Below are positions 3,001-6,000 of a stretch of 40,222 nucleotides of DNA, in pieces. Every line of letters starts with the position of its first letter. Within the stretch, counting starts at the first letter, position 1. The position numbers were made by a program. Origin of the DNA: a virus; the UHGV virus genome UHGV-0123874; one strand, written 5' to 3'.

Positions 3001-6000
3001 TCATTTAATTTGCTCCAGATGCAAGGAATCGCCGCAGCGTGGCTACGGTGAATTTTGGGCATAAAAAAACCCAGCCGAAGCTGGGTTGTCGTGTTGGTTA
3101 TCTGTCAGTAGTTATGTACTGAAGGAGGTAATTCTTTATTCTTAAGTCTCATCCATGCGGAAAGATTCGTTGGTCCGTCTGGCTCATTGATATCAACATC
3201 TCGTGTGTGATTGATTAAAACGTCTCTCGCCATTCCGATAACATACGAGAACTCATGACCGTAGTCGTAGCATCTGCAGGAATAGTTCGATTGAATTTGT
3301 TTTAGCGCCGGATACAGTTCGCGGAATAATGCCTGTGAGCGGTTGGCATAATCCCATAGCCATACAAGGCTGTTTGCTTCTTTTGCAGAAAGCTCGTTGG
3401 TTTTCTTCTCTTGTTTGCCGATGAACTCACCTTCAAGCACTACCCTGTGGATGTACTCTACGGCCAGCGGGATTTGTTCAATTGAAAGTTCATCAATGCT
3501 GTCAATACCAAAACGCTGATGAACCATATTGTATGCATCGTCATAGCGAAGTCCTTTCTTTCCTACCAGCATGTTTACTGCATCGCGTAGCGGCGTGCGT
3601 TCAGCTACTGAAGTTTTACCGCCAATAGCCTTCCTCTCTTGTGTGGCAGTAACCATTGCGTCATATGCGCGGATAACCTTCAGCGCAAATGCTGCGCTAA
3701 TCCACATGGCGTAGGAGTAAACAAGCTCCTTGCACACGTATGTTCCACCATATCTACCTTTCTTAGAAATGACGGGATTCTTATTCTGCATATCCGCAGA
3801 ATTAAAAATTTCATTAATCAATTCAATAGTTTCATTTCTACGCATGAAGAAAGCTGGCTGATGTTTTTCCTCCTTTCCAGACGCTACATGAAGGTCATTA
3901 AGCGAGTAACGACCCTCTGAATCCATATGAATCTTGACGTCAGAAATGATGATGCTATTAGTGCAATTTACAGCTGACTTTGCTAAGCTTGACATATCAA
4001 TAATACCTCGTAAGTTTTGTTGATACCGAAGCCCTGACTGTTCCCGCAGTTGGGGCTTCAACTTTCTGCTCTATCAGTTATATCTTTCCCTTCGTATACT
4101 TCACCTATATTGCTAATGCTGGCAGAACATCCAAGATGCTTGTATCTTATGATGTCCAACACGCAGTCACTACACAGCATCCGACCTGTTTCTTTAGAGT
4201 AAATGTATGTTTGATCAGTGTCTGATTCGCTAATGCCGCAGAAACAACATTCTTTACTCATACCATCACCCCCTCTCTCTTCAAGCTGTCCAGCACCCGT
4301 TTAATTACTTCTGCGCTAAACGATCGACACTCTTCCTTTGCTTTCTCTTCAAGGATTTTTTCTAACTTCTCTGGCATACGCAGTGTTTTTACCTTCATTG
4401 CATCCTCCGCTGTATGTGGTACGCATACATAGTATTTAGGTACGCATTGATAGTCAATAGATACCTACATATCCTGTGGTAAAAAATTATTCAGGATGCG
4501 CCGATGTCTGATCGTAAGTACAAAAACCCTCAAGTGAATCTGAGGCTTCCTGTAGAGATAAAGGAACGTCTTATTGAACTGGCTGAGGCTAATTCTCGTT
4601 CATTAAATGCTGAGATGGTAGCAGCACTTGAGGCATGGACTGAAAAAAATAAACATATTCAAGCACTAGATCTTGCAACTATAGCATCGCGGTTGATAGA
4701 GCTTGAGCATGAGGTTGAGAAGTTAAAATGTATGCATGGCAACAGTGAAAAATGAAACGTATCGCTATTTTGTTAATATTGTTCTTCTCTACAATAGTTT
4801 TCGCCAAACCAAAATCAGATAATGGCGATCTTAAAGGCCTGCAAGAACTCATGATAACTTCGAAATTTGCTGGCATGTGCGGCACAATCAAACAAATGGC
4901 AACATTTCAAGAATCAACAAAAATGCCTGGCGGAGATGAGTTCTTACAGCGTTTTCTGACCACAGAGCAAGCAAGACTAGGAATGAATCCACAGGAATTT
5001 CTTGAAGCATGCCAGAAGTCAATTTCAGCTTATACCAATTATTACAATCTAACTTCTGATAAATAATAGAAAGGATTTTATAAATAACTTTATGAAAAAA
5101 TCACTATTAATTATCCCGCTTCTGCTGGCTGGATGCGCAAAAGTAAGTGACTACCAAGCAAGTTGCGAACAACGCTATCCAAAGCTTAGTGATATGGCTA
5201 ATTGCCTTGATGCCAGCGTGAAGAACGACTCACGCATGGCATCAGCACCAACACCTAAGCTGTATGTCCTTGCTGCGAAGATGCTCGGGCAAGGTGTCGA
5301 TCAAGGCAAGATAAGTGACGCACAGGCAAGACTTGAGCTACAGAATCTTTATGTTCAATTACAAAGCCAAGAACAAGCCCAACAAATAGCACAAAGCCAA
5401 GCATTCCAGCAGGCTTTATTGAATTATCAGGCTGTAAACACAATGCAAGCGATCGAGCAAAAAGCGCGCCAGCCTGTTATAACTCAACATTACCCAACAC
5501 GCGTTGACACATATACAAACTGCAATTCAGGATTTGGAAACACGGTAACATGCAACAGTAGCAGTAATATCAGGTAGTTATATCTTATCTTTTATTGCTG
5601 TTCTGCTGTAATTTGGCTTGAAAGTATAGGGCGTATCGCATTTGCAGCATTATTTAGCGCTCTTTCATAAGCTGGCGTTCCAGTTTTAGTGTTTGCCAGG
5701 CGTAAGAGAGCATTCCTTGCTGCTTTGGACTCATACAAGCGCATCATTGCACCAAAACCAGCCTCAAGCCCCATTGATACGCCAAGGGTCGCAGTTGCGC
5801 CAATCGTCCTTATCCTGTTGGCTTGCGATTGCCCCGTCTGAGTTACTACATTTGCGGTGTCTGACCTTGCTGTTTGCTGTAGAACTTCATGAAGAGCATC
5901 AAGCTCTTTCATGTGCTTTCCAGAAAAAATAGTGTTGTAAATTTCACCGCCTGACTGAGATTTCAGCTTATTAACTTCAGTGATGAACTTGGCTGGAGAG

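Follow-up and report, generated by a model that had tools for sequence, protein, structure and literature searches.

The immI region of phage P22, which comprises Arc, Mnt, sar and Ant, is a textbook example of a regulatory circuit. Its position in P22-like phages has been described as the "ant moron", and the ant moron of phage CUS-3 was reported to be apparently without arc (Villafane et al. 2008, PMC2629481). An antirepressor that joins a KilA-N domain to the P22AR C-terminal part was already known from phage Emek, and a family of small cysteine-rich proteins was known as hypothetical proteins (phrog_7150). Here we describe the corresponding locus of the UHGV virus genome UHGV-0123874, analysed as one stretch of 40,222 nucleotides (hereafter, the window). 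The whole window is a mosaic P22-like (Lederbergvirus) genome, with vB_EcoP-720R6, CUS-3 and Kapi1 as its kin, and the open reading frame (ORF) analysis placed four genes at 3105-4755, three on the minus strand and one, divergent, on the plus strand. This region is a P22-type immI ("ant moron"), the secondary immunity and antirepressor control of a P22-like Escherichia coli prophage; the circuit is ordinary in its design, with the exception of a small, probable zinc-finger gene between the arc and ant genes. In our judgement the locus is probably a CUS-3-type P22 immI with an operator specificity of its own, a domain-shuffled Ant and one extra accessory zinc-finger gene. What is new is this conserved extra gene inside an antirepressor operon; in the literature searched, no description was found of a zinc-finger gene in immI or of free-standing phage proteins that resemble the ClpX zinc-binding domain (ZBD).

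Genes and control region of the immI locus

The locus is flanked on one side by the tailspike gene (635-3004, minus strand), which carries the P22 Head_binding domain, and on the other side by the genes for ejection proteins, and thus occupies the late-region position of an immI. Among the latter genes, a gp20-type Inj_translocase gene (7436-8848; a P22-type ejection, or injectosome, gene) was assigned with Pfam, and a gene for 615 amino acids at 5592-7439, in the position of gp16, gave no Pfam match at E <= 1e-5. An intrinsic terminator (3068..3087, minus strand; a stem of 8 bp, 5 of them GC pairs, and then a T-run) lies 3' of ant and before the tailspike gene, and its counterpart in phage Emek is annotated as a rho-independent terminator. 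With mnt divergent from arc-ant at the canonical position, and with both repressors belonging to the Arc family of ribbon-helix-helix (RHH) proteins, the region is indeed the variant of P22 immI that the initial annotation had taken it for.

The first gene of the Pant operon is the arc-like gene (4258-4398, minus strand), which encodes an RHH protein of 46 amino acids, has a GGAGGA ribosome-binding site upstream, and is present in RefSeq, in the allele of the window, as an Arc-family protein. The mnt-like gene (4504-4755, plus strand; 83 amino acids with an N-terminal RHH domain) lies just beyond the end that the initial annotation had given to the locus. The Pfam family Arc (cutoff, 20.4) was matched by the Arc-like protein with 33.8 bits (E, 3e-8) and by the Mnt-like protein with 40.3 bits (E, 2.9e-10). 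The alignment of the two proteins to Arc and Mnt, which had been suggested as a check, gave 36% identity over 39 amino acids with P22 Arc (BLASTP, 3e-9) and 42% identity over 36 amino acids with the RHH domain of P22 Mnt (BLASTP, 5e-11); the C-terminal tail of the Mnt-like protein, read by eye as helical, is unlike that of P22 Mnt. The Arc-like protein is near-invariant in 12 distinct relatives, varying only close to its C-terminus, and in the relatives of the Mnt-like protein the RHH part is conserved and the C-terminal tail is variable.

The control region (4411..4471), with divergent promoters and candidate operators, was delineated by a promoter scan, repeats, shuffles and conservation. 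The consensus promoter scan located a strong Pant-like promoter on the minus strand (-35 TTGACT at 4457-4452, 17-nt spacer, -10 TACTAT at 4434-4429) and a candidate Pmnt on the plus strand (-35 TTGATA at 4447-4452, 17-nt spacer, -10 TATCCT at 4470-4475); by the positions of these hexamers, the promoters would therefore stand back to back at their -35 hexamers. The two 15-mers that had been reported exactly 21 bp apart at the candidate Pant were found as described, GGTACGCATACATAG at 4418-4432 and GGTACGCATTGATAG at 4439-4453 (start-to-start spacing, 21), with GGTACGCAT as the motif present in each repeat copy of the control region. They are the first 15 nt of the two units of a 21-nt tandem repeat (4418-4438 and 4439-4459, 76% identical), and each of them abuts one Pant hexamer (-35 or -10) with an overlap of 2-4 bp. 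In addition, a near-palindrome of 19 bp (4411-4429) spans the start region of Pant at a position that matches that of Omnt in P22, and a 39-bp imperfect palindrome with 18-nt arms (4433-4450 / 4454-4471) has its centre at the back-to-back -35 hexamers.

When the 105-bp intergenic region was shuffled with its dinucleotides retained, a non-overlapping direct repeat of at least 13/15 arose in 5 of 5000 shuffles; the 15-mer motif is unique in the 40-kb window even with up to 2 mismatches allowed, and the 21-bp-spaced repeats are invariant among the relatives. Because they are rare in shuffles, confined to a single site in the window and conserved among relatives, these repeats are very likely regulatory. 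Among the 12 distinct relatives with the same arc allele, the control region was the most conserved part of the locus (variable positions, 3 of 65 in 4411-4475, versus 13.5% in arc and 39.7% in mnt). An attempt to assign the operators to Arc or Mnt by covariation failed, since among the collected loci every change of operator type goes with a change of the arc and mnt types.

The ant gene (3105-3995, minus strand, counted from its ATG) encodes an antirepressor homologue of 296 amino acids; a longer, TTG-started ORF that reaches 4061 was rejected as the ant gene. The Pfam search gave KilA-N (PF04383) at residues 19-114 (model positions 7-104 of 107; 70.1 bits versus a cutoff of 23.8) and P22_AR_C at residues 196-268 (100.8 bits), and no match to P22_AR_N. 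Residues 127-296 (170 amino acids) are 85% identical to residues 131-300 of P22 Ant, and the first 126 amino acids are unrelated to it. Judged by its sequence, Ant is a domain-shuffled chimera of P22 Ant, with a KilA-N N-terminus and the C-terminal part of P22 Ant. The KilA-N terminus had been recognised in the initial annotation; the loss of the P22 Ant fold, stated together with it, does not hold for the C-terminal 170 amino acids. The ant region has 98% DNA identity to ant of phage Emek (JQ806763), the ant genes of CUS-3 and UTI89 are slightly longer (307 amino acids) and match that of the window only partially, and proteins of this kind are labelled by the Prokaryotic Genome Annotation Pipeline as KilA-N or P22AR C-terminal domain-containing. 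The gene has its own GAGG ribosome-binding site, which lies with the AUG inside a predicted leader hairpin; the fold of the leader is not unusual (z = -1.9). Residues 73-123, in the KilA-N part, match the PADLOC candidate defence family PDC-S22 at 5.8e-11, which is probably similarity at the domain level only.

The antisense RNA sar, a core component of immI that was absent from the initial annotation, was detected at 3997-4063 on the plus strand with Rfam RF00262 (full-length match, 1-68; E = 7.4e-14; 69.7 bits versus a gathering threshold of 43). As in P22, its start lies 2 nt beyond the bases that complement the ant ATG. Its sequence complements the leader and ribosome-binding site of ant as well as the final two codons of the extra gene described below. 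In a comparison of the P22, epsilon34, Salmonella and E. coli loci, the sar terminator (a 14-bp stem at 4027-4060) was invariant, and the pairing of the 5' stem was kept through substitutions. A candidate Psar (3961..3989, plus strand; GTGCAA, 17-nt spacer, TGC-TAAGCT with an extended -10) lies within the first ant codons and is placed relative to the ant start codon like Psar of P22 and epsilon34 (GTGTTA/GTGTTC, 17 nt, TGC-TATACT); it was not reported by the consensus promoter scan. From this placement, we infer that 3961-3989 is Psar.

If the locus operates like that of P22, the Mnt-like repressor made from Pmnt would, in a lysogen, bind operators in 4411-4471 and keep Pant off. Without Mnt (on infection or after loss of Mnt), Pant would transcribe arc, the extra ORF and ant, and the Arc-like RHH protein would then close Pant. 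The sar RNA, an element identified here by its Rfam match, would pair with the ant leader and limit the translation of Ant, and Ant, with its KilA-N and P22 Ant C-terminal parts, would bind and inactivate prophage repressors.

The cysteine-rich gene between arc and ant

The extra cysteine-rich ORF that the initial annotation placed after arc (hereafter, the Cys ORF) was found at 4058-4261 on the minus strand; it encodes 67 amino acids with cysteines C5, C6, C8, C30 and C33, and its stop codon lies inside the sar terminator stem. Its start overlaps the arc stop (ATGA), and it should therefore be translationally coupled to arc; the further coupling to ant that had been claimed is not borne out, for a 62-nt gap, holding the sar target and the GAGG ribosome-binding site of ant, separates the two genes. 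The last four arc codons (~4262-4275) make up the Shine-Dalgarno region of the Cys ORF and are hypervariable from locus to locus (GVMV, GITV and others); in one assembly (P0001), a single-base change in a G-run has joined the two frames, so that Arc and the Cys protein form one product of 112 amino acids.

The Cys ORF matched phrog_7150 (1.7e-49), and in a search of 5.8 billion proteins, near-identical E. coli copies were found, to which a profile search of the same proteins added a Salmonella family of 68 amino acids (P0013, and P0019, which is indexed in 536 blocks of the collection). The Salmonella homologues have pairwise identities to the Cys protein of 33-37% and keep all of C5, C6, C8, C30 and C33; in the contigs read, the gene has its start codon on the arc stop (ATGA or GTGA) and its end within the sar terminator, with ant as the next gene. 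Between these conserved ends, the DNA of the E. coli and Salmonella types is strongly diverged, and the frame is open in both. Within E. coli, the intact copies are at least 97% identical, and a frameshifted allele is 91% identical by tblastn. An HMMER search of 1.84 billion representatives gave P0013 as the single true relative; its remaining matches (Ig-repeat and TPR proteins) were discarded as spurious, additive matches. Further divergent relatives were found neither in GTDB species genomes nor in IMG/VR (with a Salmonella-type query) nor in the metagenome scan.

Among 50,697 phage records, the Cys ORF was present only in CUS-3, and the segment from arc to the Cys ORF was present in ~56 of 5,426 complete E. 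coli genomes; the arrangement is hence not unique to the window, since it also occurs in CUS-3 (unannotated), in these E. coli genomes and in many Salmonella genomes. The gene accompanies three Ant N-domains, namely Bro-N-like (a label that is our own reading of the sequence), P22AR-N and KilA-N, and no fewer than four arc/mnt/operator types, and for this reason it is not specific to the KilA-N Ant. It is constantly flanked by the sar terminator and by the purine-rich 3' end of arc, which contains the Shine-Dalgarno region. In E. coli HCM-26C-1 (L003), which has the same arc, mnt and operators, the Cys ORF is missing as a clean indel of ~200 nt. From these comparisons, the Cys ORF is probably a genuine accessory gene, one that is dispensable and that moves in the form of a cassette.

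Two further observations concern the Salmonella loci. The rarer Salmonella allele P0013 (compared in L045 and L046) is identical in its DNA to the E. coli type through the 3' end of arc and the first nine codons of the Cys ORF (~26 nt), and from there on it is of the Salmonella type; because of this change, a recombination junction inside the Cys ORF of P0013 is suggested. A gene for a ClpP-family protein (PF00574; 178 amino acids) lies directly after mnt in Salmonella immI, abutting or overlapping the end of mnt (L045-L050, ~2967-3503), and also occurs in E. coli phages EC.P3, E212, phiv205-1 and PhiR12_1/4/5. A link between the Cys ORF and this gene was considered and rejected, as each occurs without the other; in the phage-collection searches, the six E. 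coli phages gave no match to the Cys ORF.

Fold and possible roles of the cysteine-rich protein

The motif C5-x2-C8-x21-C30-x2-C33 (CxxC-x21-CxxC), which agrees with the CxxC-x(~18-21)-CxxC spacing of ClpX-type zinc-binding domains, is invariant in all four aligned family members, and the local signatures FCG and [IL]CxxC[VI], the latter followed by a helix, fit the pattern of the ClpX N-terminal zinc-binding domain. When the Cys family was compared by hhalign with four ClpX ZBDs (the E. coli ClpX sequence was verified against PDB 1OVX), the alignment of 30 columns had a probability of 83.7% (pairwise E = 8e-6). In phrog_5259 (phage proteins of 70 amino acids, listed as of unknown function), the Cys protein (8.5e-5) and the E. 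coli ClpX ZBD (5.5e-7) matched identical columns, the UniRef name of P0019 is "ClpX-type ZB domain-containing protein", and the structure model of the Cys protein consists of a beta-hairpin, strands and then a helix, with all fold matches being treble-clef zinc fingers. Direct BLASTP of the Cys ORF against the E. coli ClpX ZBD aligned just 11 residues, NCBIfam and PADLOC gave nothing for the Cys ORF, and a Pfam match to UPF0167 (E = 0.18) was dismissed as due to the cysteine motif alone. We consider it likely that the protein is a C4 finger of the ClpX or treble-clef type, with moderate evidence for a resemblance to the ClpX zinc-binding domain in particular. As a separate observation, the E. 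coli ClpX ZBD matched three families of small phage proteins, phrog_6797, phrog_12435 and phrog_5259 (7.7e-23, 7.8e-15 and 5.5e-7, respectively), of which two are listed as of unknown function and one as "protease"; free-standing proteins like the ClpX N-domain thus seem to recur in phages and to be unstudied.

The ligands of the ClpX N-domain are adaptors, or substrates of the lambda O or MuA type. In the circuit outlined above, the Cys ORF, coupled to arc, would yield a small protein with a C4 zinc finger like that of the ClpX N-domain or CsfB, which, speculatively, would most likely act through protein-protein binding in the short burst from Pant; it might then serve as a decoy to which the ligands of the ClpX N-domain bind, or it might inhibit some different regulator. 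In the most specific form of this proposal, which we put forward as a doubtful one, the protein would be a phage-made, free-standing mimic of the ClpX N-domain, released together with Arc and Ant, which titrates N-domain ligands or heterodimerises with ClpX and so adjusts how stable immunity or replication proteins are when lysis or lysogeny is decided, as one of a wider class of ClpX-ZBD-like phage proteins (phrog_5259, phrog_6797, phrog_12435).

Several findings weigh against an immI with a functional zinc-finger gene of this type. The ratio of nonsynonymous to synonymous substitution rates (dN/dS) is ~1.2 between two Salmonella alleles of the Cys ORF (17 changes), with arc at 0.14-0.17 in the same comparisons, and the polymorphisms of the E. 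coli Cys ORF are ~5 non-synonymous to 3 synonymous in a manual count of alleles. A single frameshift, at codon 7-8, is common to 11 of 39 IMG/VR loci; the ORF has no annotation in UTI89 RefSeq or in the GenBank record of CUS-3, and no feature among the top-listed complete-genome matches; and most immI regions do not have it. As for the fold, Pfam zf-C4_ClpX (PF06689) was not matched by the window protein (its homologues reached 13.2 and 10.2 bits versus the cutoff of 27), and a PDB profile search ranked ClpX only at E = 5. As for the operators, their assignment to Arc or Mnt is one of positional analogy only. The dN/dS of ~1 in close comparisons, the shared frameshift allele, to which truncated or aberrant versions (P0003-P0005) can be added, and the missing annotation would suit an ORF without function, be it the remains of a decaying gene or a chance reading frame in the spacer from arc to the sar terminator, as would the very narrow distribution (two sequence types in 5.8 billion proteins and the metagenome scan) and the unrelated ORF that phage Emek carries in the same slot. 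We nevertheless regard this as unlikely: E. coli and Salmonella keep the open frame, the overlap at the start, the place of the stop codon and the five cysteines in common despite strong divergence of the intervening DNA, a strong purine-rich Shine-Dalgarno in the 3' end of arc travels with the ORF, and profiles link the protein to ClpX-type zinc fingers.

If the ORF is taken as a gene, other roles have to be weighed with that of a ClpX N-domain mimic. The initial annotation had suggested a co-factor or a second antirepressor, that is, a protein that binds the prophage repressor or is obligatory for Ant and binds to it. The Cys ORF is always in one transcript with ant from Pant, immediately upstream of ant, all Ant variants beside it share the P22AR C-terminal part as a possible common partner, and small dimeric treble-clef proteins such as CsfB are able to inhibit transcription factors (PMC5890618). 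An obligatory function is, however, hard to reconcile with the immI regions that do without the ORF, including those of P22 and of L003 with identical arc and mnt, and with a frameshifted allele that persists beside intact ant genes; moreover, searches of Pfam, PHROG and NCBIfam revealed no similarity to any known antirepressor family, and this role appears rather unlikely. Phage Mu Com offers the precedent of an RNA-binding zinc finger, and a protein of that kind could control ant via its leader or the sar-ant duplex; the hairpin predicted to hold the ant ribosome-binding site and AUG lies just downstream of the Cys ORF, whose sole constant neighbours are the sar terminator with the leader and the 3' end of arc. 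This seems very unlikely to us, as neither the Com family nor any other RNA-binding zinc finger was matched by the Cys protein in Pfam, the leader fold is ordinary by the z value given above, and P22 controls ant without such a protein. The remaining alternative concerns Ant itself, which might be a DNA-binding or defence-type protein rather than a classical antirepressor, so that the module would control something else: KilA-N is a predicted DNA-binding domain, the PDC-S22 match falls in this part, the best PHROG of Ant (phrog_2812) is listed as of unknown function, and the annotators of Emek remarked "Defective?" on ant. It is an improbable alternative, however, in view of the 85% identity of the C-terminal part to the experimentally defined P22 Ant, of the full arc/mnt/sar control apparatus retained around the KilA-N ant, and of the sister loci that join the same C-terminal part to Bro-N-like and P22AR-N N-domains; the variation of the N-domain looks like ordinary domain shuffling in one functional family.

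Should the Cys protein prove to be a look-alike of the ClpX N-domain with a role in the switch, antirepressor control would be linked to host proteolysis, and a first handle would be gained on several small ClpX-ZBD-like phage protein families. Should it have no measurable effect, the locus would simply be another mosaic allele of immI whose operator specificity is new. The locus is ordinary as a circuit and has one concrete, cheaply testable component.

Neighbouring genes and comparison with known systems

Next to the P22 head-binding domain, the tailspike (635-3004, minus strand) carries a C-terminal Peptidase_S74 intramolecular chaperone domain, as in endosialidase-type spikes, and its receptor-binding middle is neither that of P22 nor that of CUS-3. 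Just past its gene, near the start of the window, is a gene for a TPR-repeat protein of 161 amino acids (78-563, plus strand). On the other side of the locus, 3' of mnt, there are two plus-strand ORFs that belong to PHROGs of unknown function (phrog_19844 and phrog_6067): one of 104 amino acids with a signal-peptide-like N-terminus (4752-5066), the start of which lies on the mnt stop (ATGA), and one of 161 amino acids with a lipobox (LAGC; 5092-5577). By their position, the two ORFs could encode envelope or superinfection-exclusion proteins expressed from the prophage, in the manner of sieA in P22.

The Cys protein shares with the ClpX N-domain (PDB 1OVX, 2DS5-8; PF06689) the C4 motif, in the form CxFCG ... 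[IL]CxxC[VI] and then a helix, besides the hhalign score, the PHROG bridge family and the predicted strands-then-helix topology reported above. Unlike ClpX, it is a free-standing protein of 67 amino acids without the AAA+ body, with three more residues between the cysteine pairs and an extra conserved cysteine (C6), and it stays below the Pfam threshold. CsfB (Gin) of Bacillus subtilis is a dimeric anti-sigma factor that binds and inhibits regulatory proteins; its structure (residues 1-48 of ~64) is a treble-clef C4 fold nearest to the ClpX N-domain, with C11, C14, C30 and C33, then a helix and a disordered tail (PMC5890618). The Cys protein is likewise small and free and has cysteines at similar positions, whereas the organism and the context differ, and the likeness is one of functional analogy only; as a precedent, CsfB supports a protein-binding role of the Cys protein and does not indicate its target.

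With the ant moron of CUS-3 (CP000711), the window shares arc, the control region and the Cys ORF (98.5% identical). The two loci match over only 56% of 3005-5100, part of the ant region appears different, and CUS-3, unlike the window, has a second mnt-like gene and other downstream genes. In the CUS-3 record, arc and the Cys ORF are unannotated and lie within the "bsq2 boundary sequence"; the 2008 statement that CUS-3 lacks arc therefore needs correcting. The second mnt-like gene follows the first at 4315-4563 in CUS-3 (L001) and at 2264-2512 in UTI89 (L052), the same moron of UTI89 holds a YafO-family toxin gene (3139-3489), and the Salmonella loci have HicA and a DUF1902 protein (possibly its HicB partner) in this region; the immI region thus collects toxin-antitoxin and regulator genes. 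Phage Emek, which has the same KilA-N / P22AR-C ant, also has an extra ORF between arc and ant: its orf73 (L002, 3554-3775; 73 amino acids) lies between arc and the sar terminator, is without the cysteine motif and is unrelated to the Cys ORF. The slot therefore accepts different cargo, and it looks like a hot spot at which small genes are taken up.

Compared with P22 itself, the window agrees in the late-region position, the divergent arrangement of mnt and arc-ant with overlapping promoters, the two Arc-family RHH repressors, the sar RNA over the ant ribosome-binding site, the C-terminal part of Ant and the terminator before the tailspike gene. It differs from P22 in its operators, which are unrelated in sequence to Oarc and Omnt; in its Arc, which has just 46 amino acids and no N-terminal arm; in the C-terminal domain of its Mnt, which gave no Repressor_Mnt match; in its promoters, which are seemingly back to back at -35; in the KilA-N domain of its Ant; and in the extra gene for 67 amino acids that it carries between arc and the sar terminator.

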